Of a DNA stretch of 64,000 bases, positions 16,076-63,630 are shown one piece after another (the stretch's first letter is position 1; each line of letters opens with the position of its first letter). A model generated the notes under the pieces. That model was not told where the DNA came from, did not search any database, and was given only the letters and a program-made list of their open reading frames with translations. Made by a program: the position numbers and the translations under genes. The DNA is from a bacterium (lineage in GTDB: Bacteria; Electryoneota; RPQS01), in NCBI GenBank assembly GCA_013360195.1, contig JABWCQ010000002.1:62932-126931 (forward strand). Reading direction: 5' to 3'.

Positions 16076-16129
16076 CAATGCCCGAGAACGGTGCTATATT
16101 AAATATTTACCACAACTAAAGCCGGTAGC

Positions 16130-36310: not shown

Positions 36311-36578
36311 TAAATTTAAGATTCGAGTTTTGAATCGGATTTTTTTCGATTTCCAGTGAGCAGTGTTGCGCAAGCCATTGCGATTTATTATATTTATCAA
36401 TTGTTGGAAAGTGAATTTAGGAGTTCAATGTCCCTTCGTTAGAGGTTTTCGAGGCTCTGCCTTATTTTACGTTTTTGTATTGTAAACGACACCTCTAACA
36501 CGGCGTGCATTTGCTCCGGTTCGTTGCTTCTATGGCCGAATGGACAATCCGCTCCGTTCGGTTTTTTCATTTCACCTA
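36311..36578 (+). promoter_or_regulatory. long AT-rich structured leader/promoter region upstream of the porU-like gene
   Basis: 268-nt non-coding region, the largest in the window; contains inverted repeat GTTAGAGGT(36438-36446)...ACCTCTAAC, a T7 run and TATTATATTTAT. Confidence 0.3.
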
Positions 36579-40532: not shown

Positions 40533-40563
40533 CAAGAACTGAACATAGAATGCAGGAGAACAA

Positions 40564-41610: not shown

Positions 41611-41701
41611 ACTGAAAACTCTTGCCTTAATCGGACTTATCGCTGCCTGCCTTTCTGGTTGGTCAGCGCCCGTTTCACATTTCCCGAGCAATCGAGTTCA
41701 T

Positions 41702-44566: not shown

Positions 44567-47500
44567 GAGCAATTTTGCTGTATCTACTTGTTGTCGCGAC
44601 ATTCTCGTCGATTGCCGTTGCGCAAACTGCAGAGTTTAACAGGCCACATTTGGAGTGGATGTCGTTTGAGACGGAGCATTTCATAGTACATTACACGAGT
44701 GGTTTGGAAGATGTTGCCAACATGGCAGCGGATATTGCGGAAAGAATTCATGATCCGCTCTGTCAGGTATACGACTACTATCCCGACACGAAAGTGTCCC
44801 TCATTTTCTCCGACGTTGACGATATTGCCAATGCCGGTTCTTACTTTCAATCAAACAAGATTAAGTTCTACGCAACCTCGATGGCTTGGGACTTTCGTGG
44901 TACACATAATTGGCTGCGAAACGTTGTTACACACGAGTATACGCACATGATCCAGCTTGGCGCAACAAGAAAGTGGTCACGGCGCTTCCCAGCTTTCTAT
45001 GTGCAGGCCTTAGGTTACGAACCCGAACGGCGACCCGACGTTCTATATGGCTACCCGAATACACTTATAAGCTGGCCACTTCCGTCTGTTACAATCCCAG
45101 CTTGGTTTGCTGAAGGAACTGCGCAGTACCAATTTGACGGTGCAGGTTACGATTATTGGGACAGTCACCGCGACATGTTACTTAGGCAGTCAGTCCTTTC
45201 AGATCGTCTTTTGACCTTGGAGGACATGGGTTTTTTTGGAAAAACGAGCCTGGAATCCGAGGGTGTGTACAATCAAGGATTCTCTCTTGTAAAGTATATT
45301 GCAGATAGAAGCAACGGAGTAGAGACTCTTGGCCAGATTTCACGAAAGATGTCGTCGCTTTTACCAGTTACGTTGAATAAGGCTATTGAAAGTGTAACAG
45401 GAAAATCCGGCACGGATTGGTACAACGAGTGGAGTGCTGAACTTCGCACAAAGTATGGTGAAACTAAGAGCATGCTTCTACCATACCTTTCCACATTTGA
45501 TACTCTCGAGAAGTCGGGATTCGTCGGTGCTTATCCTGAATTCTCGACCGATGGTAATAGCCTCCTGTTTATATCAAACTCCGGTCGAGAGTACTTTGGA
45601 CAATCATCTCTGTACTGCTACAATCGACAACTTGATTCCATTTCACTGATTGCACCATCCGTCCAAGGCAATGCATGCTGGGTGCGTGGGGATAGTTCGG
45701 TAGTTTTTACAAGAAGAACGTCAGACAATCCGCATGGTGCGCTGATTTATGATATTTATGCATACGACGTAAACAATAAGCGCGAAGCGCGACTTAGTCG
45801 AGGATTGCGAGCGGAGCATATTGATGTGTCACCTGATGGGAAATACCTGGCATTCACGATTAACGAAGCTGGCCGAAGAGAAATTGCAATTGCCAAGATG
45901 CCTGAACTTGGCAAGTCAATGACCCCATTCGGCAAGGAATCAATACTGTATCGTTTGCCCACATTGCCTCATGAGCAGTACTATTTGCCAAAGTGGTCGC
46001 CGGACGGGCGCAGAATTGCTGCAGCACATCATCTTGATAAGGGACGCAACATACGTGTCTTCCTGTTTGATTCAACATCCGTAGAATTGACTCTGGATTT
46101 GGAAGTGAGCGGAAAAGGAGCCGAGCTTAGAGATCCATCTTGGGCTGCTGATAACAGACATTTATATGTCTCTTATGATGAGAGCGGCATTCAAAACATC
46201 TATAAGCTGTCACTGGAGAATGAGTCTCTTGAAAGGTTGACCGTGGTACTCGGCGGCGCTCATTACCCTGACGAGAACAACGGCAGTTTAGCTTTTGCAG
46301 AGTTTTGTAATGACGGTTTCCGGATTTGCGTAATGGATTCAATCACTCCTGTACGACTTCCACGGAATTCACTTGACTTGGCTGTTTCAAATTATATGGC
46401 AGGTATACCGCGCAATGAGGATATTCCAAGCCCCGTCATTCGAAATGCCTCGCCCTATCGTCCACGATTTGAATCGCTGTATTGGTTTCCGCGAATTGCT
46501 TTTGACTACAATACTTTCAAGCCAGGCACTTATCTCGTTTTGAATGATGTCCTAGACAAGATGACATTTATTGGCGGCGCTGCGCTTAATCAAAAGCGTG
46601 AATATGACATATATGGTCTCGTGGAGTACAAACAGTTTTATCCCACAATATTTGCAGAATACTTTAACATACAGAGAAGACTCACTTCATTTTTCGCCGA
46701 CTCCTCGCGAATTATTGGTGAGGTTGAAGGACCTGATGGCATCAATCCGATATATGATGAGTATAGAATCAGGTATAGATACAATTTAAATGAAGTAAGT
46801 GTCGGACTTGGCGTCCCCCTCAGTTCTGGAACGAACATTAAGTCACGGGCAACATATGATCAGTATGTTGCACACAACCGATTCGACGATGAATCGAGTG
46901 TCAGCCTTACCTATTTCAGAGGGTGGTCATGGAAGACAGGTGTATATACGGATTCCCGCCGCCCAGGTTTGTACACGGAAATTAGTCCAAACAGTGGCTA
47001 TCGAGGCTATTTTGAATACACGAGAGCAAACCATGACTTTATCAGCGATATAGAGATTGGTGGTGATGCCATTGGACTGCGCGAGATATACGACCCCAAT
47101 AACTATGGGCTCTTTGAACTTGGCCTTGAAAAATATTTCAAGTCTCCTATCCACGACCATACAGCTGAAGTTCGCCTTAAGGCTGGATACATGGATGAGA
47201 ACGTAGATCCATTTTTCTATCAATATGCCGGGGGCTTGCCGGGGATGCGGGGCTACTCGTTCTATAGCCTTGGCGGGACTCGAACCGCGGTTGCGACACT
47301 AACGTATCGCTTTCCGCTCATCAGCAGAGCGGCTTTGGGATTGTGGCCGCTTTCGCTCAACAGGGTTTTTGGATCGCTATTTGTTGATGCTGGAGATGCA
47401 TGGGTGGGTGACTACACGGACCGCACGATAAAGAAGGACATCGGTGCAGGTATTCGGGCTCAACTTCATTCCTTCTATTCTTATCCAACTGCAGTTTCTA

Positions 47501-47673
47501 TTGATGTTGCTTATGGCCTGGATGAATTCGATGTAATTGAAGGTGATGTCCTGACCAGTTACGGCGACGAATTGCGCTACTACCTGACCGTTCTGTTTGA
47601 CTTCTACACCCCGATAATTCCACCTGCCAGACATCCGTCAAGCTGCCTCTGTTCGAATTGTACACACAATTAG
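44563..47673 (+). CDS. exported fusion protein: zincin (HExxH) domain + TolB-like beta-propeller + C-terminal Omp85-like beta-barrel
   Basis: Signal peptide 'MRAILLYLLVVATFSSIAVAQ'; 'VVTHEYTHMIQ' HExxH; propeller blades 'EFSTDGNSLLFISN', 'DVSPDGKYLAFT', 'WSPDGRRIAAA', 'SWAADNRHLYVSYD'; C-terminal ~350 aa beta-rich with 'GGLPGMRGYSFYSLGG' (Omp85 loop-6 VRGF/Y-like) and '...YYLTVLFDF' beta-signal-like ending, followed by a 22-aa tail. Confidence 0.45.
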   Translation: MRAILLYLLVVATFSSIAVAQTAEFNRPHLEWMSFETEHFIVHYTSGLEDVANMAADIAERIHDPLCQVYDYYPDTKVSLIFSDVDDIANAGSYFQSNKIKFYATSMAWDFRGTHNWLRNVVTHEYTHMIQLGATRKWSRRFPAFYVQALGYEPERRPDVLYGYPNTLISWPLPSVTIPAWFAEGTAQYQFDGAGYDYWDSHRDMLLRQSVLSDRLLTLEDMGFFGKTSLESEGVYNQGFSLVKYIADRSNGVETLGQISRKMSSLLPVTLNKAIESVTGKSGTDWYNEWSAELRTKYGETKSMLLPYLSTFDTLEKSGFVGAYPEFSTDGNSLLFISNSGREYFGQSSLYCYNRQLDSISLIAPSVQGNACWVRGDSSVVFTRRTSDNPHGALIYDIYAYDVNNKREARLSRGLRAEHIDVSPDGKYLAFTINEAGRREIAIAKMPELGKSMTPFGKESILYRLPTLPHEQYYLPKWSPDGRRIAAAHHLDKGRNIRVFLFDSTSVELTLDLEVSGKGAELRDPSWAADNRHLYVSYDESGIQNIYKLSLENESLERLTVVLGGAHYPDENNGSLAFAEFCNDGFRICVMDSITPVRLPRNSLDLAVSNYMAGIPRNEDIPSPVIRNASPYRPRFESLYWFPRIAFDYNTFKPGTYLVLNDVLDKMTFIGGAALNQKREYDIYGLVEYKQFYPTIFAEYFNIQRRLTSFFADSSRIIGEVEGPDGINPIYDEYRIRYRYNLNEVSVGLGVPLSSGTNIKSRATYDQYVAHNRFDDESSVSLTYFRGWSWKTGVYTDSRRPGLYTEISPNSGYRGYFEYTRANHDFISDIEIGGDAIGLREIYDPNNYGLFELGLEKYFKSPIHDHTAEVRLKAGYMDENVDPFFYQYAGGLPGMRGYSFYSLGGTRTAVATLTYRFPLISRAALGLWPLSLNRVFGSLFVDAGDAWVGDYTDRTIKKDIGAGIRAQLHSFYSYPTAVSIDVAYGLDEFDVIEGDVLTSYGDELRYYLTVLFDFYTPIIPPARHPSSCLCSNCTHN

Positions 47674-52090: not shown

Positions 52091-52688
52091 TTTGATCGTC
52101 AGGCTCACGCTAGTTTCATCATCTCCCCGCCGCATTTCCCTGCTCAAACGACTGGAGATTCCTTTCGATGTCGCTCCCGTACAAGTGCATGAGCGGTGGG
52201 ACGCGACCTCGACCGTAATACTCGCGCAACAGAATGCGATGCGAAAAGTTCATGCATCCGAGCACTTTGGTGCAAGTCGGCGAATGCTGTTGGGTGCGGA
52301 CACGGTCATTCATCACGATGGAGTCGTACTTGGCAAACCAGCCGGTCGTGAAAGTGCCAGACGCATGCTAAGTAGACTTTCTGGAAATTGTCACGAAGTT
52401 GTCACCGGATACTGCATCATGACCTTCAGTGAAGATGGGGCGATAAAAGACACGTGCGTCGATGCATCAAGTAGCTACGTAACGTTCGACCGCCTCTCAA
52501 AATCAGTGTTGACAGAGTATTTGGATTCGAATGAGTGGGTTGGCAAGGCCGGAGCTTATGCGATACAAGGGAAGGCCGGCGCGTTTGTAACTACTCTTAA
52601 AGGCGACTTTGACAACGTCGTCGGATTACCAGTGGAATCAATTCGTAATAAGTTTGGAACAGTCTTCTCAAATTATCAGTTTCTGTGA
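52091..52688 (+). CDS. maf: Maf-like nucleoside triphosphate pyrophosphatase
   Basis: 'LTLVSSSPRRISLLKRL', 'GADTVI', 'GKP', 'VGKAGAYAIQG'; start set at TTG 52091 just after the upstream stop (the ORF-track extension 51891 lies inside the previous gene). Confidence 0.8.
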
Positions 52689-53517
52689 AGAGCTAAGAAA
52701 GGCCAGGGAATTCCAGGGCCTTTCGCTGGCCGATGTTGCGAATGAGACTCGAATTCCTCTCGAGTATTTGTCTGCACTTGAGTCTGGTCAACTCAGCATA
52801 ATACCTGAACCCATACAGCGGGGCGTGATCTCCGCTTATGCCAAGTCCGCTCGGATGAACTCCGAGAAAGTTCTGCATTCGCTTGACGTGTTGAAAGGTG
52901 GGAAGTCTGTTTCGGACGCACGATTATCTGCATCCGACAGGCTATCTGATGAGTCGCTCACAGTCGGAATGACTAGGGCACAGATTCAAACTGCATGGTT
53001 TGCCTCAATTGCGGAAAACCGGCTCCTTCACTGGGTTCTCACTCTTTTGTTGCTTATTGTAGGAGTATGGATGACGGCGCAATGGCGTACTGACAGTAGT
53101 GGTTCTGCAACCGATCCGGTTACGGGCTTGTCCTCCAGTTTGCCAGTGTCCTCTTTTCGACCGACTCCAGTCCGAGAGATTCGAGAAATGATGCCTGATT
53201 CAATCAGGTTCATTGTGAGCTTTCCATTACAGGTGAGCGAGTTTAGCGCACTTGACACGGCTCAATTCCAACTCTGGTGGGGTATCCAGGAGGATAGTTC
53301 ATACTTCATGTATCCACATGATAAAATAGAATTTATGCATTATAGCGGGTTGCGCATAAGTTCAAACAGTGGTGCCAAAGGTCTGATGGTCAGTGGTGAA
53401 GACACTTTTACAACACATTTTGGCAAGGATTCCCTGAACACATGGCTACAATTCCCGGATAGGACTGCCGCTGACGACGCACTTCTGGCGGAACCCGGAG
53501 ATTCGATTACAGGTTGA
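52609..53517 (+). CDS. HTH (XRE-like) + single-TM protein, RodZ-like
   Basis: 'EELRKAREFQGLSLADVANETRIPLEYLSALESG' helix-turn-helix; TM segment 'LLHWVLTLLLLIVGVWMTAQW'; Ser/Pro-rich periplasmic tail; downstream of maf; start uncertain, since the ATG overlaps maf by 80 nt. Confidence 0.45.
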   Translation: MTTSSDYQWNQFVISLEQSSQIISFCEELRKAREFQGLSLADVANETRIPLEYLSALESGQLSIIPEPIQRGVISAYAKSARMNSEKVLHSLDVLKGGKSVSDARLSASDRLSDESLTVGMTRAQIQTAWFASIAENRLLHWVLTLLLLIVGVWMTAQWRTDSSGSATDPVTGLSSSLPVSSFRPTPVREIREMMPDSIRFIVSFPLQVSEFSALDTAQFQLWWGIQEDSSYFMYPHDKIEFMHYSGLRISSNSGAKGLMVSGEDTFTTHFGKDSLNTWLQFPDRTAADDALLAEPGDSITG

Positions 53518-53596
53518 CAACTCCCGAACTCATTGTTATATTATGTTTTTGCCCCTTCCCCAAAAGGACCTGAGCTGATAAGTTTGTTTCGCACCA

Positions 53597-54790
53597 ATGG
53601 TCTTCCTCATCTTCGCGTTTGTCACCCTTCTTTTCTACGCCTACTTTGAGTACTCAAGTCATCGAAGCAGGGCCAGGCGTATTCCCATCAGAATCCATGT
53701 AAATGGCACTCGAGGTAAGTCATCTGTCACTCGATTGATCGCAGCTGGTCTGCGAGCCGGGGGAATTCGCACGATGGCCAAGACCACCGGTACGCTTCCT
53801 CGAATAATCGACGTTGACGGACTTGAAATCCCAATCAAGCGCAAAGCCGGCGCAAACATAATTGAACAGACAAAGGTATTCAAGTACTTCGCGACAAGAG
53901 ACCCCGAGGCCATTGTGATCGAATGCATGGCAGTTAACCCCGAGTACCAATGGATTTGCGAGCACAAGTTTGTTAACGCGACAGTCGGAGTCATCACGAA
54001 TACAAGACTTGATCATATTCTTGAAATGGGGCCAACACTTGAAAACGTGACCCGGTCCCTGTGTAACACATTGCCTCATGATGGGGTGGCGTTTACGGCG
54101 GAGCAGAATATGTTCTGGATGATGCGGAAAGAAGCCGAGCAGGTAGGCTGCAAACTGCTTCGAGTTAATGCGGACAGCGTTTCTTATCTTGAACTTGGCC
54201 AATTCACTTACATTGAGCATGCGGATAATGTTGCGCTTGCGCTGGCTGTTTGTGAACATTATCAAGTCCCAAGAGAAGTCGCGTTAGAAGGAATGTACAG
54301 TGCCTTTCCGGATCCAGGAGCTTTACGAGTCATCGAAGCTGAGGAGAATGGCAGAGTTGCACAATTCATTAATGCCTTGGCGGCAAATGATCCAATGTCA
54401 ACACTTGCGATTTGGCAGAAAGTGAAAACGCTGTCAACAGATCTAGGGGTAGTCTGCTTTCTTCTAAACACGCGAGCAGATAGGTACGATCGTACAATAC
54501 AATTGCTCGAAATGGTTCGCGACAATCTGACATCAGAGTTCAACTACTTCTTTCTCAACGGAGAAAACTTGGAGAGAGTTTATAATAGCCTGCCCGAATA
54601 TGGTATCGATCAATCACGAGCAGTGAAGATTGGTATGGCCGCTCCAAAGGCAACCTATGATGCAATCTTTGAGCGGATCCCAGACATAGGGACAGTATTT
54701 GCGATGGGTAATGTTGGAAAAGGCGGACTTGACATTGCAACTTTCTTTGGACAACGCAGAAGAGTTCGCAAAGGTGTAGTTGCAGCCTGA
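53597..54790 (+). CDS. pgsB: poly-gamma-glutamate synthase, ligase subunit PgsB/CapB
   Basis: N-terminal TM; 'IRIHVNGTRGKSSVTRL', 'VIECMAVNPEYQ', 'DHILEMGPTLE', 'DPGALRV' closely match B. subtilis PgsB. Confidence 0.9.
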   Translation: MVFLIFAFVTLLFYAYFEYSSHRSRARRIPIRIHVNGTRGKSSVTRLIAAGLRAGGIRTMAKTTGTLPRIIDVDGLEIPIKRKAGANIIEQTKVFKYFATRDPEAIVIECMAVNPEYQWICEHKFVNATVGVITNTRLDHILEMGPTLENVTRSLCNTLPHDGVAFTAEQNMFWMMRKEAEQVGCKLLRVNADSVSYLELGQFTYIEHADNVALALAVCEHYQVPREVALEGMYSAFPDPGALRVIEAEENGRVAQFINALAANDPMSTLAIWQKVKTLSTDLGVVCFLLNTRADRYDRTIQLLEMVRDNLTSEFNYFFLNGENLERVYNSLPEYGIDQSRAVKIGMAAPKATYDAIFERIPDIGTVFAMGNVGKGGLDIATFFGQRRRVRKGVVAA

Positions 54791-54819
54791 TTTAGAAAGC
54801 TCAGTGTACACAGATACAA

Positions 54820-55275
54820 ATGATTGAACTGACTATTGGACTTGGGGTACTCGTAAGCCTCTTGTTTCACGAAATTGTTGGCGCAGCAGCCGGTGGGATC
54901 GTGGTTCCTGGCTACCTTGCGATGCACCTGAACAGTCCCGCAAAACTCATCGGCACATTTGCAGTGGCTTTCATTGCATACTTGTGTATAAGAGTTGTTT
55001 CACGCTTCATGTTTGTATATGGTCGCCGACGTATGGTTTTGGCCATCATGTTTGGCTTTATTTTCGGCTACATTAGCCGGAACTTGATTATGAGCGATAT
55101 GTGGATATCTGACCTGCGACTGGAGGCAATAGGTTTTATCATTCCCGGCCTGATAGCAAATTGGTTTGAGCGTCAAGGCGTGATCAAGACGCTCGCAACA
55201 ATGTTGATTGCCGCGCCACTTGTAAAGTTACTTGTCATGGTAATCACGGGAGGTGAGATCTATCATGGCATTTAG
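54820..55275 (+). CDS. pgsC: poly-gamma-glutamate synthase membrane subunit PgsC/CapC
   Basis: 151 aa; 'GIVVPGYLAMHL', 'YGRRRMVLAIMFGF', 'GFIIPGLIANWFERQG' match PgsC. Confidence 0.9.
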   Translation: MIELTIGLGVLVSLLFHEIVGAAAGGIVVPGYLAMHLNSPAKLIGTFAVAFIAYLCIRVVSRFMFVYGRRRMVLAIMFGFIFGYISRNLIMSDMWISDLRLEAIGFIIPGLIANWFERQGVIKTLATMLIAAPLVKLLVMVITGGEIYHGI

Positions 55276-56386
55276 ACCCAGCCTTCGTTCAATTTGGACG
55301 CTTGTCGCAATGTCCGTTGTGTGTTATGGCTTGTATCTTTGGGCCGAGTACAGCAGGATTGAAGTCAAACGTGCAAACCATGAGTTAAAACTTGTTGCGG
55401 CGAATAGAATGAGTAACGCTCTTCGTGAACTTGCTAGTCGCCAGTTTAGTGGAAGCGAAAGTCTCGAGTCGTACGGTGATCCCCGTGTTGATGCATTGAT
55501 AGGACAGCAATTCTCGACTATCACCTCAGATATAGGTAGCTTTGAGGAAAAGCTGTATGGCGCAAACCCCAACTTGGCCGCGGCTGTTATTGAGCTCCTG
55601 CTTGATGCCGGGCTGAAATCCGGGGACAAAGTAGCCATCGCACTCTCAGGCTCTACACCGGGTGCTAACATCAGCGTCCTGTGTGCTTGCAATGCCTTAG
55701 GCGTGGATGCATATACTTTATCTTCGCTTAGTTCGACATGGTGGGGCGCAACGGATCCCCGCAATACATGGGCAGATATGCAGTCCTTTCTTATAGATAA
55801 GGGAATAGTGAATTGCACAGTAGTTGGGTATTCTCTCGGTGGAATCGACGATAATGCACTTGGAATGTCGAGCCTTGGCCGCACTGAGTTAATTGAGGCA
55901 GTGGGCCGAAACAAGGCGAGGCTGATTGAAGCCACATCACTTAGTGAGTCTTCAAGAGAATGGTGGAAAGCGTTTAGGGCTTCACTTAACGGTCAAGTTC
56001 CTTCCGCCTATATTAACGTTGGTGACGGTTTAGCTAGCTTAGGGCACAAAGAGAATGGACAGTTACTCGGCAATGGAGTACACCGTCGATTGCCCGCTCG
56101 AAATTGGCCTGGAAATGGAGTCGTTCACATTGCAGCAAAAGAAAATGTGCCAATCATTAATTTCTACTCTTCGACAGAGCTGTCAAAGGAATATGGCTTG
56201 GGATCCCCACGACTTCCTTTGACCGAGCCTGGAATTGGCGATGTGTTCGTGACCATAAAGTATGATCTGCGAGTTGCGATTGCCGCTCTTGTGATTACGC
56301 TGGCAGCACTCTTCACTCTTGTTTGGTTTGATTCTAAGTACTTCCGGCTTGCCGATGCCGGTGTTGACCCGGAAACACTCTTATAA
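55253..56386 (+). CDS. membrane-anchored poly-gamma-glutamate (PGA)-locus protein replacing canonical PgsA/CapA (possible 'poly-gamma-glutamate system protein' family)
   Basis: N-terminal TM 'IWTLVAMSVVCYGLYLW', C-terminal TM 'VAIAALVITLAALFTLVW'; no CapA metallophosphatase GDxM/H motifs; sits in the PgsA slot directly after pgsC with 23-nt overlap. Confidence 0.4.
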   Translation: MRSIMAFRPSLRSIWTLVAMSVVCYGLYLWAEYSRIEVKRANHELKLVAANRMSNALRELASRQFSGSESLESYGDPRVDALIGQQFSTITSDIGSFEEKLYGANPNLAAAVIELLLDAGLKSGDKVAIALSGSTPGANISVLCACNALGVDAYTLSSLSSTWWGATDPRNTWADMQSFLIDKGIVNCTVVGYSLGGIDDNALGMSSLGRTELIEAVGRNKARLIEATSLSESSREWWKAFRASLNGQVPSAYINVGDGLASLGHKENGQLLGNGVHRRLPARNWPGNGVVHIAAKENVPIINFYSSTELSKEYGLGSPRLPLTEPGIGDVFVTIKYDLRVAIAALVITLAALFTLVWFDSKYFRLADAGVDPETLL

Positions 56387-56409
56387 TTCGCGCATCAGTA
56401 AAATCAATC

Positions 56410-57315
56410 ATGACTAGAACTACCTACCTTATACTTCTTTTGACGTGTTTCGCTGCTTCGCATATTGCGTTTGCCGAGGACGGGTTTGTGTATCTCAAAC
56501 CATCCACTTTTGACCAAAGTACAAAACTTACAGTTGCGGGTAAGTCACGAACCTACTTTGTCATTGAACGCGATGCGCAAGTTAGCGCAATTGTTGAGGG
56601 GCCGTCACAGTTAAAAGTCATGTCTCGCCTTGAGTTGCCGAATCCCACTGCACAGCCGGACTATACACTCGAAGTTCAGATTGAAGGAAGCAAAAGGCCG
56701 CGCACAATTCATCACACAAGTAAAATTTCCGAAAAAGCCGAGAGTGGTGCTTCTTTTGTAGGCGTGTTGCGTTCAAAGGTAATTGATATACCTGCGGGAA
56801 AACACAATGTAATTATCAAGCTTCCCGAAGGATCTTCAGACAAGGTCTACATCAGATTGTCCCTCAAGACTAATGAATTCACGGGCGGAACCGCCGTTGT
56901 TGCAATGACTCCCTTTGAGTATACAAGTGAAGTAGAGCTTGTCTCAGATGAGGTAATATACCCTTACTACAGAATAGGGTCAAACGATCGCGCCGTGCTG
57001 AAGCTGGTAGGGCCTGCAACTCTGAAGGTTCTAAGTAGAATTGAGTTCAGTCCGGAAATGAAAGGAAGCCAAAAATGGAAAGTTCAAGTTCTTGAAGATG
57101 GGAGGGTGAAGAAGAACTACAGCATGACAGCCGGGTCTTCGGACGTTATTCAATACAAGAATCCTTCGCCCTTCTTGCCGAGCCGGGCTGAGACATTCTT
57201 CGTCGAAATACCAGACGGAGAGCATATTTACGAGTTTAGGATGGTCGACGATCGTCGGACTTCGATTCTCCGTTTCTTGTTACCGAAAACAGAACTTGAA
57301 GGCGAACCACGGTAG
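56410..57315 (+). CDS. secreted protein with an internally duplicated ~140-aa domain
   Basis: Signal peptide 'MTRTTYLILLLTCFAASHIAFA'; internal repeat 'AQVSAIVEGPSQLKVMSRLELP' vs 'AVLKLVGPATLKVLSRIEFSP'. Confidence 0.4.
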   Translation: MTRTTYLILLLTCFAASHIAFAEDGFVYLKPSTFDQSTKLTVAGKSRTYFVIERDAQVSAIVEGPSQLKVMSRLELPNPTAQPDYTLEVQIEGSKRPRTIHHTSKISEKAESGASFVGVLRSKVIDIPAGKHNVIIKLPEGSSDKVYIRLSLKTNEFTGGTAVVAMTPFEYTSEVELVSDEVIYPYYRIGSNDRAVLKLVGPATLKVLSRIEFSPEMKGSQKWKVQVLEDGRVKKNYSMTAGSSDVIQYKNPSPFLPSRAETFFVEIPDGEHIYEFRMVDDRRTSILRFLLPKTELEGEPR

Positions 57316-58421
57316 TGCGAAAATACTTTACGTTTGTAATATTGATTTCAGTTCTTCTTGTGTCCCAGGAAGTTGAGGCGCGTCGTCAATCTCGACTGCC
57401 AACCTTCGAGTGGGGGTTAAAGGTCGGAATTGCGGGAATTTACAATGACAATGTTTTACGATTGTCAGAGACGGATCAGGATGCCTTTCGTCGATCAAGT
57501 AGTACTTTTAGAACCCCACTAGAAACTATAGACGATGGAGAGACTGAATTTTCGATTGCTCCGGCTATTCAATGGCGCGCGCCTGCGAACCTTATGGCGA
57601 TCGGTGCATACAGATTCAAGACCGTGCAGAGACTGAATAACGAGTTCTCCAGTTACCAAACACATAGTTTTAGTGCAACCTTGCGGCCGCGTACAAAGGG
57701 CTACCGGTGGTCAGCAAAATTATCGGTCTTTGCGATACCTGACTTTTACTTAAGAGTATATCGCGATCGGGACTTCGGGACCTATCATGATACACGGTTC
57801 AAGAATTTTGAATACAGCGGTGAATTCTCGATTAGACCTCTTCCTCAGGTTTGGCTGGCAGGTCAGAGTGGCTTCGGTTCAATATATTACGACAAGAGGT
57901 TTACCGAGTTTGACAGTGAATTCTACGAAATTGGTGGAGAGGTTCGCTATTCGGCACCATGGGCATCAACAGTTTCACTTCGTTACACTCGACGAAATAG
58001 CGATAACATTGGGAAGAGCCAACAGTTTCTATACTACCCCTCCTTCGAGAGCGATGTAGTACTCGAAGATAACGAATATGGAGATGCCGACAATACGGAA
58101 GATGAGTTGCGGTTAGTCTTAAAATCACCGCTAAGACTCGCTCAAGAACTCTCACTCGACGCATCTATAACCACGCGTATTCGTCGTCGAGTCTATTCTA
58201 CCATGAATAGTCTGGAGTCCGATCCTTTTCATCGCGGACGGTTAGACAACAGATGGGAAGTAACTCCGTCTTTATCCTTCCCGGTTAATTCGGCCATTGA
58301 CATCGAGGTCTTCTACACTCACGAGGAACGTAAGTCAGAATCCGACGTAGAAGGAGTACCGCGTGTTAAAGATTTTGATAGGAATGAAATCGGCATCGGT
58401 GCCACGTATTCGCTAAGATAA
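57315..58421 (+). CDS. secreted beta-rich protein, candidate outer-membrane barrel
   Basis: Signal peptide 'MRKYFTFVILISVLLVSQEVEA'; alternating hydrophobic/polar strands with many Y/R/F/W; start overlaps the previous stop. Confidence 0.35.
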   Translation: MRKYFTFVILISVLLVSQEVEARRQSRLPTFEWGLKVGIAGIYNDNVLRLSETDQDAFRRSSSTFRTPLETIDDGETEFSIAPAIQWRAPANLMAIGAYRFKTVQRLNNEFSSYQTHSFSATLRPRTKGYRWSAKLSVFAIPDFYLRVYRDRDFGTYHDTRFKNFEYSGEFSIRPLPQVWLAGQSGFGSIYYDKRFTEFDSEFYEIGGEVRYSAPWASTVSLRYTRRNSDNIGKSQQFLYYPSFESDVVLEDNEYGDADNTEDELRLVLKSPLRLAQELSLDASITTRIRRRVYSTMNSLESDPFHRGRLDNRWEVTPSLSFPVNSAIDIEVFYTHEERKSESDVEGVPRVKDFDRNEIGIGATYSLR

Positions 58422-58456
58422 CAGTTAGAAGATAGCCTTGATCGGCATAGAAACTA

Positions 58457-58492
58457 AAAGGGTCACATCGAGTGGGGTGACCCTTTACTTTT
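58457..58492. terminator. bidirectional intrinsic terminator hairpin
   Basis: Perfect 10-bp stem AAAGGGTCAC/GTGACCCTTT with a 10-nt loop, flanked by T-rich tracts on both strands, between convergent operons. Confidence 0.6.
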
Positions 58493-58515
58493 CAGTACTC
58501 TATCTGGACCTAAGA

Positions 58516-59628
58516 TTACGCCAATCTGCGGTCTTTCCAAGTTATTGCAGGTCGCCGGAAAATTGACAGCACAAGTCGCCAACCATATGCAAGAGCATAA
58601 AGCGGGTAAACATACATATACATGTACAGTCCTCGCCTGTTCAATCTTGTTAGAACTGAGGAAATGACCAGCCAATCACCAAGCATAACAGCAAACCCTG
58701 CAGCGCCACCAATCTTTCCCGAAAACAGCAATAGAATCGGCCAAAGCAAATGAGTGGCAAGTCCAAACCCAAATAGGAGTTTGCCCCTGACGCTTATCGC
58801 CCGAAATCCCTCCATCCACCTGTAGCGCTGATTCACAAGATCTGTCGTGCTTCCGACAGGCAAAGTTACGACGCACGCGCCTTGCGTTACGGCAAACGCA
58901 ATCCCCCATTTTTTTGAATCGGCCACTGCCCTGAAGAGGGCAATGTCATCAATACGATTATGACTTATCCCTCGGAAAGTTCCGACATCTTCGTAGCACT
59001 TCTTCCTCACCGCATAATTATTGCCGATTAGCGCTAGCGGACTTCCTAATCGGCACATTCCGGCGCAGACGCCTAATAGCAGAGACCAGTCTACGGATTC
59101 GAAGCGAGTTTCTAACTTGCGCGTGTTTTCATAGTCAGGCAAAGTAATTCCGCAGACAAGTCCAACGTCTTGCTCAAAATGCCGAACAATATCTAATACC
59201 CAATCTTGGGGAACCTCGCAATCGCCATCCGTCATTAGAATTATCTCCCCTTTGGCCTCGTCGATTCCCTGCGCTAATGGAAGTGTCTTGGTCGGTGGCA
59301 AACTCTCCGTTTGCCCATGACTCGCATTGAAGATCCGAACTCTGAACGGAAGCTTCCTGCTGAGCTCGTGCGCAACCGCGCAAGTTTGGTCAGTCGAATC
59401 ATCATTGACAAGAACTAACTCCAATTTCGCATATTCATATCGCAATGACTCCAATGATTTAAATAGCCTTGGCAAGTTTGCAGCTTCATTTCGTGCAGGA
59501 ACCACAATCGACACAAGTGGCAATTCAATGTCCTGTGCAGGACCTTTTTTTAACAAGGCTGCAGCTACCAGCGAACCTATTGTCAGATGCAATGCTCCAG
59601 CGCTCACGGCCAATGTATCGAGAATCAT
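58516..59628 (-). CDS. family-2 glycosyltransferase, processive (QxxRW) type with a C-terminal membrane domain
   Basis: 'IVVPARNEAANLP', 'VLVNDDSTDQT', 'DGDCEV' DxD, 'QRYRWMEG' QxxRW, C-terminal TM helices. Confidence 0.8.
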   Translation of the reverse strand: MILDTLAVSAGALHLTIGSLVAAALLKKGPAQDIELPLVSIVVPARNEAANLPRLFKSLESLRYEYAKLELVLVNDDSTDQTCAVAHELSRKLPFRVRIFNASHGQTESLPPTKTLPLAQGIDEAKGEIILMTDGDCEVPQDWVLDIVRHFEQDVGLVCGITLPDYENTRKLETRFESVDWSLLLGVCAGMCRLGSPLALIGNNYAVRKKCYEDVGTFRGISHNRIDDIALFRAVADSKKWGIAFAVTQGACVVTLPVGSTTDLVNQRYRWMEGFRAISVRGKLLFGFGLATHLLWPILLLFSGKIGGAAGFAVMLGDWLVISSVLTRLNRRGLYMYMYVYPLYALAYGWRLVLSIFRRPAITWKDRRLA

Positions 59629-60332
59629 GCAACAATCCGGATAGCATTCTCACACTTCAGCGCGACAGACTTCAAGCCCATTGACTCAATGCGGTCGCGC
59701 AAAAACCACAGTTGCGATATAACTTGCGGAGTAGTCACATGTCCATCATGCATCAAAAGTATCATGCGGTCATGTACCGCCGCTGACATTCTTGTCAACA
59801 ATGCACTATCTTCTTGTGGTTTCCAGTCGCGGACATGCGCAGACCAAAGAACTGGGACTGCACCAATTTCAGTGACCCGTTTATGAAGGCGCCAGTCTAT
59901 TGCTCCATAAGGTGGTCTGAAGAGCAATTCCATTTTAACTCCAAAATCCTGCAGTATGTATAAAGACTGTCTAACACTTGCCTGAACAAAGGACGGTTCT
60001 CTGAACCAGTGCTTTTCATGTGAGTATCCATGGCAGGCGATGGAGTGACCTTGTGCGGCGATCTCTTGCAGAAGCGATCTATTTCCCTTACACTTCTGTC
60101 CCACAACAAACATAGTTGCTTTCAAGCCCAGGTCGTCCAATGTCTTGAGTAGCATTGGTGTGGTCTTTGGATCCGGACCATCATCGAAAGTTATTGCGGC
60201 CTCACCTGCATTCTTACAGTGCGTTTGCCATCCACGGGCGAGCAGAGGTGCTATTTGCGAGATTGGACGTATCACTCTACCAGGCTCCGTTTCTTCTGCC
60301 GTTTGCCAAACTTCACTGTACCACCCAGCCAT
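59625..60332 (-). CDS. polysaccharide deacetylase (NodB/CE4 family)
   Basis: 'ITFDDGPDP', 'HGYSHEKHWF', 'LLMHDG' CE4 motifs; overlaps both neighbours. Confidence 0.8.
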   Translation of the reverse strand: MAGWYSEVWQTAEETEPGRVIRPISQIAPLLARGWQTHCKNAGEAAITFDDGPDPKTTPMLLKTLDDLGLKATMFVVGQKCKGNRSLLQEIAAQGHSIACHGYSHEKHWFREPSFVQASVRQSLYILQDFGVKMELLFRPPYGAIDWRLHKRVTEIGAVPVLWSAHVRDWKPQEDSALLTRMSAAVHDRMILLMHDGHVTTPQVISQLWFLRDRIESMGLKSVALKCENAIRIVA

Positions 60333-61525
60333 TTATCAGATACACCGAGCGGAAGTTTGGCAGTGCGATACCAATCACCCTTCCAGTTGTACGGGAACAA
60401 AAGACCACAAAATCCGAAAAAGGGTGTAGCAACAATGTGAACAATTTCGTAAATCCAGAAATAAGGGAGCAATCGTGTTTGGTTGAATACTTTGGCTCCG
60501 ACGTACACTGTTATTGAGTCGCATAGCAATTTTGTTGCTACGATCAAAGCTCCAAGCAGGTACGGAAGCGACGAATAAAACGTCACCAGAGGCAGAAAGA
60601 TCAGCGCAGAATAGTAGGTGTACACGAGGAATAGGAACACAAGCATGCTGCCCCTGTACTTCAGGCCTTTTGAAGCCCATCGCAATCGTTGATGGATTAG
60701 TTCGGAAAGCGACTGCACCGGAACGGAGCGAACAATGGATTCCGTAGCGGTCGAAAAAGCCATTCTCCAGCTTGTCATTGAAGCAACCCGTTGCGCAAAC
60801 AGGACATCGTCACCTGATACAATTGCAGCAGACTCTCCATATCCTGCGATTTCGTCATATACTTGTCTGCGAAAACACAAATTGCTGCCGTTACAACTTG
60901 CCGCATGGTTCCATCCAAGCGCACCTGCTGCCAGGAAATTCTGAACGAAGAAATCAAGCCATTGAACTTTTTGCCATACCGGCACTGACTTGTAATTCGG
61001 GAGGTCAAAGATCGTAAGTCCTGCTACCACCCCTACATCATCGGTAAGATAGCTCACCATACTTCGAATCCAACCGGAGTGATATTGGCAATCAGCGTCA
61101 GTAGTGAAGACTATGTCGCTTTCTGTGGCCGAAATTCCTATGGCCAACGCGGCCTTCTTGGGCGAGGTCTCGGGTTCCTTGACAACCCGGATTGCCCTAA
61201 GGTTGCCATACTGAGCACAAAGCTTCGCCAGAACTGCAGGTGTTTCATCCTCACTTCGGTCATCAACCACTATTAGCTCCCAATTACCGGGATAATCCTG
61301 TTTCATCAGTGAAGAGATTGTCCAAGGTAGTATTCCAGCCTCGTTTCGTGCTGGCATGACTACACTTACGGTCGGCCATTTGCTATGATTCGCCACTCTT
61401 TTCTTCGTCAATCTCGCAATTCCTACGGCAAACCAAAGCATTGCAATCCCAAACACAACCGTCAGGAAACACAAAATCGAGAGGATAGCATTAGGGAATG
61501 TGCTAAACACGGTCTTGCCATCCAT
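60272..61525 (-). CDS. family-2 glycosyltransferase, processive (QxxRW) type
   Basis: 'VVMPARNEAGILP', 'IVVDDRSEDETP', 'TDADCQY', 'HQRLRWASKG', N- and C-terminal TM segments. Confidence 0.8.
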   Translation of the reverse strand: MDGKTVFSTFPNAILSILCFLTVVFGIAMLWFAVGIARLTKKRVANHSKWPTVSVVMPARNEAGILPWTISSLMKQDYPGNWELIVVDDRSEDETPAVLAKLCAQYGNLRAIRVVKEPETSPKKAALAIGISATESDIVFTTDADCQYHSGWIRSMVSYLTDDVGVVAGLTIFDLPNYKSVPVWQKVQWLDFFVQNFLAAGALGWNHAASCNGSNLCFRRQVYDEIAGYGESAAIVSGDDVLFAQRVASMTSWRMAFSTATESIVRSVPVQSLSELIHQRLRWASKGLKYRGSMLVFLFLVYTYYSALIFLPLVTFYSSLPYLLGALIVATKLLCDSITVYVGAKVFNQTRLLPYFWIYEIVHIVATPFFGFCGLLFPYNWKGDWYRTAKLPLGVSDKWLGGTVKFGKRQKKRSLVE

Positions 61526-62594
61526 GATGGATCGTGAAGATGCGTTTTATGAACCGGACGCCGACGAGGGCAGGTATGGCCACGTTTAGACTAAATAGCG
61601 CTAATGACGCGGCGACAGAAATGGTATCTGGCACACCAAGTCCACGCAGGCAGATAAGTGCAGTCCATTCACCTACTCCCAGATTTCCAAGCGTAAGCGG
61701 TATATTTCCTTTGAGAAAGAAATTCAATTGAATCGCCAAAAGGCTGGCTATAAAAGGTAGCTCCACACCGAACGCTCTGAGAATCAAATAAAACTGAACT
61801 AACGAAACCAGTAACGAAAGTGACGCAAGTCCCAAGAATACGAAGGAAGTTCTAAACGAGATTAAATTAAGCTGCTGAAGCGAGTTCGCAACTTTCGTTA
61901 GCTGAAACATCGTGCCAAGCGTTTTTCCAATAAAACCAAGAATCGCGCCAGGAACAAGGCCAGCTGCAAGTACCAGTCCGCCGACAATAGTCAGTCCAAA
62001 AGAAACACTAGGACTTAATGGTGCCCAACTAACGCTCCATCCAAGTTGGGGAAGTAGTCCAAGCGCAATAAGACCAAATCCGTTAACAGTCACCGCACTG
62101 TAACTTCTCTCAAGTAAGGTCAAGGCAGTTGCTTCCAGTACATTGACATTGCGCAGAAACAGACCTCGGCCGTAAGCACCGATTCGTCCAGGTGTTATGA
62201 ATCCCAGAGTGTGACCTAGCCAATAGCTTGCCTTGATATCGGAAGAATACGGTTTCGTCGCACCTGAATTAGCAATGAGCTTCCATCTTAAGTACTGCAG
62301 GTATTGGTTGGGTATCCACAGCGCGATCGCCCCCGATAGTCCAATCAGGCTTGCATTCTTTAATGCGTTTAAGACGTCTTGCCATTGAATCTGCCAAGTC
62401 AACAGTGCAAGCACAACAAAAGTACTGAGCAACTTTATCCATTGAGGAAAGGTACGGCTCTGAGACTCTTTGATTGGGACAGTATTAACTACTGTATTCG
62501 TTTCGTAAGATTGATTCAACGTTCTAGCGGCCTGTCGCAGCAATTTTACGGTCACGCCATGAGTAAGACTTGCCAAAGATGCTTGCCAAAGCAC
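61503..62594 (-). CDS. UPF0104/lysylphosphatidylglycerol-synthase-TM-like membrane protein (flippase-like)
   Basis: ~8 TM helices, no soluble domain, embedded between GT2 genes as UPF0104 members typically are; weak, pattern-level call. Confidence 0.4.
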   Translation of the reverse strand: MLWQASLASLTHGVTVKLLRQAARTLNQSYETNTVVNTVPIKESQSRTFPQWIKLLSTFVVLALLTWQIQWQDVLNALKNASLIGLSGAIALWIPNQYLQYLRWKLIANSGATKPYSSDIKASYWLGHTLGFITPGRIGAYGRGLFLRNVNVLEATALTLLERSYSAVTVNGFGLIALGLLPQLGWSVSWAPLSPSVSFGLTIVGGLVLAAGLVPGAILGFIGKTLGTMFQLTKVANSLQQLNLISFRTSFVFLGLASLSLLVSLVQFYLILRAFGVELPFIASLLAIQLNFFLKGNIPLTLGNLGVGEWTALICLRGLGVPDTISVAASLALFSLNVAIPALVGVRFIKRIFTIHHGWQDRV

Positions 62595-63630
62595 GCCAAA
62601 TCATCCAAAAGGGGAGGAGGAGCGAAGCAAGCAGAATTTCCAGATTCGAAATATCGAGTTTCAATTTCCGTTTAACGAAGATTCCTGAAAACGTGTCTAA
62701 GAGTATTTTTGCAGCCGCAAAGGACACCGGAATTAATATTTGTCCGAAAGCCGGAAGTGCAACGAGAGAGGCAGGGACAACTACTCCGGACACGACTGAC
62801 ATGAGAAAGACAACTTGCCAGTGTAACGGGTAGAGTTTCGTGACACTTTGATGGCGGACTGCTTGAGACCATCTGGATCCACGGACTCCCCCTAAGTCGT
62901 GAACAACACTCTCGCTATCTGGACAGAACACGACGCGAAAACCAGCTCTGGCAATCGCCTGCACAGTCAAATCATCATCTCCTGAAGTCAAATCACGTCG
63001 GACTGGTGCTTCAACCACATTCAAAGCTTCCCGACGGTATAGAATATTGTGGCCGCAGGCTGAAGCAGGACTTCCCCAACCACACGCCGAAGCCATACTT
63101 ACATTGGCTATCAGTCTTTCCCATCGATAAATTCTGCTGAGAATACCCTTATCGTTGCTTGGCCACGATGCACCAATGACTGCACCAATCTTAGAGTCAG
63201 AGTACTTGGCCATTGATTCCAGCCACTTGTTGGGCACTACACAATCCGCGTCCGTGAGAGCGACAAGTTCGGTGTCGATATTCGCGAACGCAAGCGCTAG
63301 ACCTGTCTTTTTGGGACTCCTGCCTGCTTTAGAAGTAAAGGTGACCATACGCAACTTGCCGTATTTCTTCGCAAGGTTTCGCACAATTTCAGGCGATTGA
63401 TCGTCGGAACTATCGTCCATCAGAATCACCTCCTGTGGGCCAATACACTGCTCACAAATCGAGATCAGGCAATCAGATATCGTGCGTTCTTCATTACGAG
63501 CAACGACCACAACAGCGATGCTCTGTGTCTGCTCTGCCTGCGAACCCTTTCGTTTCGCCCCAAGCCAACGGACAACACCGATTAGCCAGAAAAGGGACGG
63601 GAGCAGAAGAGTTGCATATAGCCAAATCAC
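62524..63630 (-). CDS. family-2 glycosyltransferase with membrane anchors
   Basis: 'IAVVVVARNEERTISDC', 'VILMDDSSDDQSPEI', 'TDADCVV', 'SRIYRWERL' (QxxRW-like), TM helices at both ends. Confidence 0.75.
   Translation of the reverse strand: MIWLYATLLLPSLFWLIGVVRWLGAKRKGSQAEQTQSIAVVVVARNEERTISDCLISICEQCIGPQEVILMDDSSDDQSPEIVRNLAKKYGKLRMVTFTSKAGRSPKKTGLALAFANIDTELVALTDADCVVPNKWLESMAKYSDSKIGAVIGASWPSNDKGILSRIYRWERLIANVSMASACGWGSPASACGHNILYRREALNVVEAPVRRDLTSGDDDLTVQAIARAGFRVVFCPDSESVVHDLGGVRGSRWSQAVRHQSVTKLYPLHWQVVFLMSVVSGVVVPASLVALPAFGQILIPVSFAAAKILLDTFSGIFVKRKLKLDISNLEILLASLLLPFWMIWRALASIFGKSYSWRDRKIAATGR

Follow-up and report, generated by a model that had tools for sequence, protein, structure and literature searches.

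A five-gene cassette comprising pgsB, pgsC, a TIGR04332 gene (gene 3) and two genes of unnamed families (genes 4 and 5) was found in the window (i.e., the whole 64,000-nucleotide stretch of bacterial DNA analyzed here), and in many lineages genes 4 and 5 form an obligate extension of pgsB-pgsC-gene 3, as shown by co-occurrence; the three-gene form is also found, in L024. We interpret the five genes as one operon for an envelope-spanning poly-gamma-glutamate (PGA) machine in a diderm. The gene identities, folds, obligate co-occurrence and fusions reported below are shown; we lean modestly towards the machine itself, for which export, localization, binding, direction of transport and identity of the polymer are inferred. 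PGA is a capsule and virulence polymer as well as an industrial biopolymer, and work on its synthesis has dealt almost exclusively with monoderm Bacillus; how diderms move PGA across the periplasm and outer membrane was not addressed in the literature searched. The PorU, PorV and Omp85 genes in the window indicate that the organism studied here is a diderm.

The cassette and its boundaries consist of the following features:

53514..53542, + strand: sigma-70-like promoter match TTGACA-17-TATATT (11/12, with TG extension), 55 nt 5' of the pgsB ATG
53597..54790, + strand: pgsB, poly-gamma-glutamate synthase (TIGR04012, PF08245, P-loop, hydrophobic N-terminus)
54820..55275, + strand: pgsC, small polytopic inner-membrane partner of PgsB (TIGR04011, PF14102, several hydrophobic segments)
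55253..56386, + strand: gene 3, TIGR04332 "poly-gamma-glutamate system protein", in the PgsA/CapA position (alternative start 55265)
56410..57315, + strand: gene 4, secreted protein of 301 aa with two tandem CBM35/36/6-like beta-sandwich domains; unnamed family, basic pI
57315..58421, + strand: gene 5, secreted protein of 368 aa, 14-strand outer-membrane beta-barrel; unnamed family
58450..58493, no strand assigned: hairpin and short T-run lying between gene 5 (stop at 58421) and a convergent minus-strand glycosyltransferase gene (stop at 58516)

All five open reading frames proposed in an initial sequence-only reading were found (53597-58421, + strand, in the order pgsB, pgsC, gene 3, gene 4, gene 5), with intergenic spacings of 29, -23/-11, 23 and -1 nt. 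The 23-nt overlap between pgsC and gene 3 given in that reading held only in part, as the NCBI start of gene 3, an ATG at 55265 (373 aa, P0083), yields an overlap of 11 nt, and the claim that gene 3 is followed without gaps failed, as genes 3 and 4 are separated by 23 nt and the overlap of genes 4 and 5 is only 1 nt long (TAGTG). The claim of a "strong" terminator also held in part; the hairpin and T-run are real and are of moderate strength (stem of 10-12 bp; RNA fold of -18.2 kcal/mol, z -2.25). This hairpin, which was missed by the automatic terminator scan because of a loop-length limit and was identified from the sequence, is the only one within the cassette, 3' of gene 5, and is likely to represent a bidirectional terminator. 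The promoter is a consensus match only; such matches are no more and no less frequent in the region than expected from shuffled sequence, and the consensus used is sigma-70-like, the promoter type of this lineage being unknown. An Rfam search of the window matched no RNA family. Signal peptides were inferred solely from N-terminal hydrophobic helices, without a dedicated predictor.

The identification of pgsB and pgsC held, as both proteins scored above the respective curated cut-offs. PgsB matched TIGR04012, an equivalog-level model, with 398.5 bits (cut-off 222.7; residues 4-383 of 397), and shows a Mur-ligase middle domain (PF08245, E 6e-9), a Mur-ligase-type P-loop read from the translation (GTRGKSS, residues 37-43) and a hydrophobic N-terminal membrane anchor (residues 1-20). 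By this family assignment PgsB is a Mur-ligase-type ATP-dependent amide ligase; gamma-glutamyl polymerization itself is inferred from homology. PgsC, encoded by a gene that begins 29 nt 3' of pgsB, matched TIGR04011 (127.7 bits; cut-off 96.45) and PF14102 (E 1.8e-34) and contains several hydrophobic segments.

Gene 3, which overlaps the end of pgsC and is located directly after pgsB-pgsC in all related loci as well, matched TIGR04332 with 225.7 bits (cut-off 100; residues 15-317). Its description as a TIGR04332 protein rather than a CapA thus held at the sequence level. PF09587 (PGA_cap) gave no match to gene 3 at E<=0.1 and matched 0/27 members of the TIGR04332/gene-3 family, and hhalign of gene 3 against a real PGA_cap protein (from L023) gave a probability of 0.1%; the candidate identity of gene 3 as CapA, including a divergent one, was therefore rejected on sequence grounds. 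A PDB sequence search with the gene 3 family profile yielded chance-level matches only. Overall, gene 3 is unrelated to PgsA/CapA by sequence and takes their place in the operon, the metallophosphatase fold not having been judged. The transmembrane helices claimed for both ends of the protein were confirmed in part: there is a strong C-terminal helix at 335-361, whereas the hydrophobic segment near the N-terminus, at about 14-33, does not reach a standard hydropathy threshold. A large domain is located between the two.

Gene 4 consists, as claimed, of two copies of a domain of ~140 aa. Similarity between the halves was weak by pairwise BLAST (E 6e-4), and the duplication was decided by profile-profile comparison (hhalign half vs. 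half 99.1%, E 7e-19), which shows that it is real; the AlphaFold2 model (pLDDT 90) likewise consists of two beta-sandwiches. The protein meets the beta-sandwich jelly-roll fold criterion of CBM35, CBM36 and CBM6 and does not meet membership by sequence, as no Pfam, NCBIfam or PDB sequence match was found and a PDB search with the family profile gave chance-level matches only. A cellulose synthase complex chain is among its fold matches. Unlike these CBMs, to which it shows no sequence similarity, gene 4 encodes a stand-alone tandem pair with no attached enzyme, and its presumed ligand is a polypeptide-like polyanion, for which there are no ligand or metal site data. The gene 4 family, which comprises 591 clusters at 50% identity, is strongly basic, with a median pI of 9.3 (9.8 in the broad family, of which 92% lie above 7.5), as expected of a polyanion binder. 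Gene 4 as a lipoprotein (Cys13 in LLTC) was considered and rejected, as the alignment of the family shows no conservation of this Cys.

The beta-rich character claimed for gene 5 held, and barrel prediction gave a 14-strand barrel (pLDDT 86, pTM 0.80). Gene 5 meets the criteria for outer-membrane beta-barrels, i.e., an N-terminal signal sequence (hydrophobic helix 3-22) and an even number of amphipathic antiparallel strands closing the barrel, with strand faces that alternate polar and apolar. All of its top fold matches are outer-membrane barrels, and the barrels of BcsC, PgaA and PelB appear among its fold matches; of the solved structures, CymA of Klebsiella oxytoca and OmpG of E. coli come closest in fold, and a fold match with equal strand number (14) meets the criterion for the CymA/OmpG type. 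Identity to these two proteins in structural alignments is only 9-13%, with no detectable sequence homology, and gene 5 carries conserved charged motifs of its own; motifs shared across phyla are YDDNxLRxS, FYLRxYRDRD, FTEYDS and DPFHxGRxD. The protein ends in GATYSLR and other family members in YKLF, YKFF, RRIY or TYxIN, i.e., with an aromatic residue near the terminus that is not always terminal. Gene 5 had no Pfam or NCBIfam match, and the PDB profile search returned nothing at E<=1, so that neither the gene 4 nor the gene 5 family is represented in Pfam, NCBIfam or PDB by sequence. CymA and OmpG serve in the uptake of sugars and are not known as exporters, and CymA carries an N-terminal plug, the presence of which in gene 5 was not judged. 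Although Arg-rich, the lumen-facing strand residues carry a net charge of only about +2, and with a pI of 5.8 (median of about 7 in the family) mature gene 5 is acidic to neutral; the electropositive pore expected for export is therefore not demonstrated.

A total of 71 metagenome loci (identity 19-59%, GC 0.27-0.61) were retrieved via the gene-5 motif; the gene-4 alignment (111 sequences) was too diverse for pattern-based locus retrieval and the gene-5 cross-phylum alignment was thus used. Among loci with enough upstream DNA, same-strand upstream partners were found in the same order for gene 4 (45/45), gene 3 (31/31), pgsC (26/27; the single miss is untestable) and pgsB (19/19). As it was seeded with gene 5, this sample is uninformative on the fraction of TIGR04332 loci that carry genes 4 and 5. 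The cassette is present in bins labelled Calditrichota/KSB1, Acidobacteriota and Bacteroidota. In close relatives about 15 genes are syntenic around it; in other loci (L016, L017, L018, L021, L022, L023 and L097) the five-gene block alone is kept and the flanks differ, showing that the cassette outlives the surrounding synteny. L024 lacks genes 4 and 5, L020 carries a gene-4 homologue but is devoid of pgs genes over the roughly 9.5 kb preceding and 9.7 kb following it, and L098 has its barrel gene about 5 kb away instead of adjacent. The sequence-only reading would have been refuted by a divergent CapA or by a lack of conservation of the downstream genes beside pgsBC; both were tested and neither was found, the downstream genes being conserved in the same order far beyond close relatives.

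Gene fusions provide a second line of evidence. Genes 3 and 4 are fused in two cases, P0175 and P0238 (TIGR04332 297 and 317 bits), which would place gene 4 in the periplasm, given the inferred inner-membrane location of gene 3. In three further cases (L021, 657 aa; L076; L100) gene-4-like domains are fused N-terminally to the gene-5 barrel, and, being N-terminal to an even-stranded (14) barrel, these domains would also be periplasmic. We take these five independent fusions as support for a functional link among genes 3-5.

Genes for a C25-family peptidase and an LVIVD protein flank the cassette in many loci, and in the lineage of the window a glycosyltransferase/deacetylase cluster is convergent to it; the C25, LVIVD and GT2 neighbors are clade-specific and fall outside the conserved core. 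The C25 peptidase of the window (36540-40532) was rejected as a cassette partner, as it pairs with PorV and shows only weak similarity to the C25 proteins that are linked to the cassette in the other clade.

The PGA-machine reading thus rests on PgsB, PgsC and TIGR04332 matches above curated cut-offs, the operon structure, the persistence of the block amid new flanks, co-occurrence, fusions, the basic gene 4 and the diderm genes. Against it, there is no experimental evidence that the cassette makes PGA or that anything traverses gene 5. The undemonstrated electropositive pore, the uptake role of CymA and OmpG, the deviating loci L024, L020 and L098 and the seeding of the locus sample with gene 5 also speak against it. 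In the proposed mechanism, PgsB and PgsC polymerize glutamate at the inner membrane, as is established for the family. Gene 3 would be an inner-membrane-anchored protein whose large domain faces the periplasm, and would play the accessory role of Bacillus PgsA/CapA. Gene 4 is inferred, from fold, charge and fusions, to be a basic periplasmic protein that binds the anionic polymer, forms a physical bridge between gene 3 and the outer-membrane component, or does both, and gene 5, a monomeric 14-strand wide-pore barrel of the CymA/OmpG type, may be the conduit for the polymer out of the periplasm.

As in Bacillus PgsBCA(E)/CapBCA(DE), PgsB (a Mur-ligase-type amide ligase) and then PgsC lead the operon and the third protein is membrane-anchored with a large extracytoplasmic domain. 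Conversely, the third protein of the cassette is TIGR04332, with no detectable relation to PgsA/CapA (PF09587), and the cassette lacks PgsE, CapD and PgdS and has periplasmic-protein and barrel genes without monoderm counterpart. A Gram-negative three-gene CapB/CapC/"PgsF" layout has been described (preprint 10.1101/2025.11.11.687785), in which we take "PgsF" to be TIGR04332; the first three genes and their order are alike, L024 representing this form, whereas genes 4 and 5 are added in the cassette. For the claim that loci of Fusobacterium, Leptospira and Francisella-like type replace PgsA, we found in the literature only this preprint and PMC5362203, which reports the Francisella capA annotation; F. 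nucleatum is described as a PGA producer (Candela et al. 2009, as cited in PMC3815933). The CapsuleFinder PGA model holds only Bacillus-type components (three to five) and names no outer-membrane or periplasmic part, and its authors state that diderms require at least one extra protein (PMC5542703). Our literature search for an outer-membrane PGA exporter found nothing relevant, and the accessible literature names no outer-membrane or periplasmic component.

By analogy, the cassette may work like synthase-dependent exopolysaccharide secretion (BcsA/B/C for cellulose, Alg8/44/K/X/E for alginate, PgaCD/B/A for PNAG, and Pel), in which an inner-membrane polymerase, a periplasmic jelly-roll/CBM binder or scaffold and an outer-membrane barrel are also encoded in one operon, without being a member of that group. 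Its polymerase is the amide ligase PgsB and the criterion of a processive GT2 synthase is not met (the GT2 genes near the cassette are on the other strand and clade-specific); no TPR scaffold, c-di-GMP module or sequence homology was seen, and the polymer would be a polyamide. The outer-membrane barrel is present and the periplasmic partner is a CBM-like tandem, not a TPR protein, i.e., analogous and not homologous. Barrels of synthase-dependent systems have 16-18 strands, compared to 14 in gene 5.

The main rival explanation, which we consider unlikely, is that genes 4 and 5 hold PGA at the cell surface as a capsule (as lectin or anchor) and that passage through the outer membrane occurs by another route. 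Parallels would be Wzi in group 1 capsules and CapD anchoring in Bacillus anthracis, although the gene 4/5 counterpart of CapD would be non-covalent. Anchoring accounts for the fusions and for the strict association with pgsBC no less than export does. The CBM-like fold and the basic charge of gene 4 mark it as a binder, and the barrel lumen of gene 5 is not clearly electropositive. On the other hand, both types of fusion, to the N-terminus of the 14-strand barrel and to the inner-membrane gene 3, put gene 4 in the periplasm and not at the surface, and no other outer-membrane component is conserved across cassettes.

Alternatively, PgsB and PgsC could make another gamma-glutamyl product or envelope modification, which genes 3-5 deliver to or attach in the outer envelope. 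Homology is the sole basis for the identity of the product, gene 3 has no relation to PgsA, the C25-family peptidase and LVIVD protein flanking many loci hint at extra chemistry, a glycosyltransferase/deacetylase cluster is convergent to the cassette in this lineage, and the Francisella capBCA locus is not known to yield PGA itself. This explanation appears very unlikely, as PgsB scores 398 bits on an equivalog-level model (cut-off 223), PgsC exceeds its own cut-off and the C25, LVIVD and GT2 neighbors are not in the conserved core. We consider it similarly improbable that genes 4 and 5 import glutamate, oligo-gamma-glutamate or PGA fragments for polymer supply or turnover. The closest solved folds of gene 5 (CymA, OmpG) and the resemblance of a binding-type periplasmic protein plus porin to nutrient uptake pairs favor uptake, but the cassette has no conserved PGA hydrolase or inner-membrane importer, and an importer would hardly explain why gene 4 is found fused to gene 3, which is associated with the synthase. 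That genes 4 and 5 are strictly co-oriented and translationally coupled with the synthase genes better fits one machine. Finally, inherited synteny of a single lineage without functional meaning, which could account for gene order in close relatives given their syntenic neighborhood of about 15 genes, is all but excluded by the retention of the block with unrelated flanks in labelled Acidobacteriota, Bacteroidota and Calditrichota/KSB1 bins (GC 0.27-0.61), by the co-occurrence counts and by the five fusions.

Returning to the PGA-machine reading, genes 4 and 5 are supported as candidates for export or anchoring, their actual role and the identity of the polymer remaining inferred, and the two unnamed families are the best candidates yet for how PGA crosses or attaches to the outer membrane. 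A bolder reading, which we regard as just as likely to be wrong as right, is that pgsB-pgsC-TIGR04332-gene 4-gene 5 represents an unrecognized, widespread trans-envelope polyamide secretion system that evolved independently of polysaccharide export machineries and includes two families without name, structure or literature. Genes 4 and 5 (about 300 and about 370 aa) are two small, concrete candidate families that can be cloned with pgsBC into E. coli for direct testing, and the five-gene signature can be used to annotate PGA loci in uncultivated bacteria of the FCB group, Acidobacteriota and others. If the bolder reading is true, the cassette would represent the diderm solution for moving PGA over the periplasm and outer membrane, and these data suggest that PGA production by environmental diderms may be more organized than three-gene annotations imply.

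All five genes of the poly-gamma-glutamate (PGA) cassette are co-directional (5 of 5 in the ORF listing of the window) and are separated, in cassette order, by 29 nt, a 23-nt overlap, 23 nt and a 1-nt overlap (TAGTG, between genes 4 and 5). The cassette and the type IX secretion genes located 5' of it are as follows:

36540-47673, + strand: type IX secretion genes (1,330-aa PorU-like C25 peptidase, PorV, 954-aa Por_Secre_tail protein, 1,036-aa PD40 and Omp85-domain protein)
53597-54790, + strand: pgsB
54820-55275, + strand: pgsC
55253-56386, + strand: gene 3, 'poly-gamma-glutamate system protein' (alternative start ATG 55265)
56410-57315, + strand: gene 4, 301-aa secreted protein
57315-58421, + strand: gene 5, predicted outer-membrane barrel of 368 aa

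If gene 3 in fact starts at the ATG at 55265 that NCBI uses for the identical protein P0083, the overlap with pgsC is 11 nt, not 23 nt. A good sigma-70-type match is found 55 nt 5' of pgsB; this is a consensus match only, and the number of matches in the region equals the shuffle expectation. On the 3' side of gene 5, a hairpin of 10-12 bp (-18.2 kcal/mol, z -2.25) followed by a short T-run lies between the stop codon of gene 5 and that of a convergent glycosyltransferase gene on the minus strand. The sequence-only reading had described this locus as pgsB and pgsC followed by a non-CapA third gene and two secreted proteins, and that observation held with small corrections. The source is an uncultivated diderm, and the presence of PorU-like, PorV, type IX cargo and Omp85-domain genes identifies the host as a diderm of the FCB type; the locus proteins have their closest named relatives in metagenome bins of Calditrichota and KSB1.

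The first three cassette genes are of a known kind. PgsB, in which the Mur-ligase P-loop is present, scored 398.5 bits against TIGR04012 (cut-off 222.7), and PgsC scored 127.7 bits against TIGR04011 (cut-off 96.45). Gene 3, which had been read as lacking CapA motifs and for which a TIGR04332 search had been suggested, scored 225.7 bits against TIGR04332 (cut-off 100) and gave no CapA signal by sequence methods. Profile searches found no match to PF09587 (the PgsA/CapA family) in gene 3 or in any of its relatives (0 of 27 family members), and alignment of its profile with that of a genuine PGA_cap protein (992 aa, related locus L023) gave a probability of 0.1%; a divergent CapA was thus rejected at the sequence level. 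No solved structure related to gene 3 was found by sequence. Hydropathy analysis showed a strong C-terminal membrane helix (residues 335-361) and a weaker hydrophobic segment at the N-terminus. Separately, we observed that a protein of 992 aa carrying a PGA_cap (CapA-like) domain is encoded beside a complete five-gene cassette (L023 3025-6003; L085, another related locus, 13875-16970). CapA-like and TIGR04332 proteins can therefore share one locus, which indicates that TIGR04332 is not simply a CapA replacement.

Within the Calditrichota-like lineage the entire neighborhood of about 15 genes is syntenic, and gene order alone therefore says little there. In more distant genomes the five-gene block alone is retained. 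Gene 4 identity is 33-36% in three related loci (L016, L017 and L018), and pgsB-pgsC-TIGR04332 together with proteins recognized by the gene 4 and gene 5 profiles (157-224 and 50-265 bits, respectively) was found in an Acidobacteriota bin (L021), two Bacteroidota bins (L022 and L025), L023 and a 5.4-Mb contig (L097) in which the cassette has SecA/TopA flanks. A metagenome scan seeded with a gene 5 motif alone yielded 71 loci (gene 5 identity 19-59%, GC 0.27-0.61); among contigs that extend far enough upstream, the genes preceding gene 5 on its strand included gene 4 in 45 of 45, gene 3 in 31 of 31, PgsC in 26 of 27 and PgsB in 19 of 19, the sole PgsC miss being an elongated gene 3 that reaches the contig edge. 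The genes are also joined by fusion. P0175 (693 aa) and P0238 (683 aa) combine TIGR04332 (297 and 317 bits, respectively), a membrane segment and a gene 4 module, with P0238 encoded directly 3' of pgsB-pgsC, and in L021 (657 aa) and two further loci (L076 and L100) the gene 5 barrel carries gene-4-like domains as an N-terminal fusion. These data show that the cassette is a genetic unit.

Exceptions were observed. Locus L024 (GC 0.70) carries only pgsB-pgsC-TIGR04332 followed by unrelated opposite-strand genes, so the first three genes can occur without genes 4 and 5, here in an unknown host of unknown envelope type. In L020, a 321-aa gene 4 homologue (9548-10513; 161 bits against the family profile) is flanked by an aminotransferase gene and an SSB-like gene, and pgs genes are absent from the roughly 9.5 kb of upstream and 9.7 kb of downstream sequence; no other case of a gene 4 homologue lacking nearby pgs genes was seen among the 17 genome loci. 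In L098 the barrel gene is located about 5 kb 5' of pgsB.

Gene 4 matched no Pfam or NCBIfam family. An AlphaFold2 model from a 30-sequence alignment (pLDDT 90.4) predicts a hydrophobic N-terminal helix followed by two all-beta domains. Pairwise BLAST of the two halves gave merely E 6e-4, and comparison of their family profiles gave a probability of 99.1% (E 7e-19, 126 columns), showing that the halves are homologous; the claim of two domain copies held. Family pI is basic (median 9.3 for close members and 9.8 for 111 diverse members; 92% > 7.5). An exhaustive profile search recovered 591 clusters at 50% identity (390 at E<=1e-10), nearly all of 290-320 aa, and the family is thus large, uniform and unnamed. 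Three members (P0170, P0179 and P0195; 429-446 aa) exceed the usual length of about 300 aa by about 130-150 aa and are matched by the family profile in two stretches, mainly the C-terminal 270 or so residues. From length and profile matches, a third beta-sandwich copy is possible, in which case the domain would be a modular repeat.

Gene 5 matched BBP2_2 only faintly, and the generic OMP_b-brl model matched 3 of 23 family members. Its model (pLDDT 86, pTM 0.80) predicts a signal-like helix and 14 long strands; the top Foldseek matches were OmpG and CymA (E about 1e-11, TM 0.5-0.6), with the exopolysaccharide barrels PgaA, BcsC and PelB further down the lists. Motifs YDDNxLRxS, FYLRxYRDRD, FTEYDS and DPFHxGRxD are kept across phyla. 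With faces assigned by hydrophobicity, the modeled lumen presents 17 Arg, 4 Lys, 6 Asp and 13 Glu, and is therefore predicted to be water-filled and Arg-rich with a net charge of only about +2; this charge leaves the passage of a polyanion neither supported nor ruled out.

Several neighbors of the cassette are clade-specific. A membrane-associated HTH_25 (RodZ-like) protein (52609-53517, + strand) is encoded immediately 5' of pgsB; homologous ORFs occur in 16 of the related loci, directly 5' of pgsB wherever pgsB was also mapped, and none was found in the loci of other phyla. The protein may be a regulator specific to the lineage, or a mere neighbor. A convergent cluster (58516-63630, - strand) encodes three GT2 glycosyltransferases, a polysaccharide deacetylase and a membrane protein of the LPG_synthase_TM type; it shares synteny with the cassette in Calditrichota-like relatives only, and possibly makes a second surface polymer or glycolipid. 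In a low-GC clade typified by L022, a peptidase of the C25 family (about 1,260 aa; Propeptide_C25, Peptidase_C25 and FlgD_ig domains) adjoins the cassette, usually immediately 5' of pgsB on the same strand (upstream in L022, L025, L041, L045, L046, L051, L054, L059, L060, L062, L068, L070 and L077; downstream in L085 and L018). By analogy with CapD or PgdS, it could conceivably process or anchor the polymer, a function that is inferred. In the same clade, the gene 5 homologue is followed directly by the gene for an LVIVD-repeat protein (about 334 aa) in about 35 metagenome loci, among them L022 (11433-12437), L040, L041, L051 and L059, which brings the cluster to seven genes; the window has no such gene, and its gene 5 is followed by a terminator.

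The most economical reading of the cassette would be one envelope-spanning machine. PgsB and PgsC are known as a family to polymerize at the inner membrane, and would do so here. Gene 3 would offer a periplasmic domain in the place held by PgsA in Bacillus. Gene 4 would be periplasmic, given its signal sequence and its fusions to inner-membrane gene 3 and, at the periplasmic side, to a barrel with an even number of strands, and its basic CBM-like domains may bind the polyanionic chain, bridge both membranes, or both. Gene 5 would be the conduit in the outer membrane. The analysis establishes the genetic unit and the folds, and localization, binding, transport direction and polymer identity are all inferred; we modestly favor this export model. 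The proposal that genes 4 and 5 serve export or anchoring was supported as far as computation reaches, and neither outcome set beforehand as refuting it (gene 3 a divergent CapA; downstream genes unlinked to pgsBC) was borne out when tested.

Among the alternatives, surface anchoring, in which genes 4 and 5 would hold the polymer rather than export it, appears unlikely. A product other than PGA is considerably less probable, with PgsB and PgsC scoring above their family cut-offs. Uptake or recycling, which would reverse the inferred transport direction, ranks lower still. Chance synteny is all but excluded by the metagenome counts and fusions.

The export model shares the logic of synthase-dependent exopolysaccharide secretion, with unrelated parts. 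The layout in the accessible literature for Bacillus is the PgsBCA(E)/CapBCADE set, whereas the Gram-negative layout described is a three-gene CapB/CapC/'PgsF' (10.1101/2025.11.11.687785); F. nucleatum is cited as the first Gram-negative PGA producer (Candela et al. 2009, in PMC3815933). The CapsuleFinder PGA model uses Bacillus anthracis components only, and its authors point out that in diderms a further protein is required for the outer membrane (PMC5542703). No outer-membrane or periplasmic PGA component was found in the literature searched, but most subscription journals were outside its coverage and absence is unproven. To our knowledge, the extension of pgsB-pgsC-TIGR04332 by these two families has not been described previously, and this obligate, fusion-linked extension by two unnamed families represents the new part of the system.
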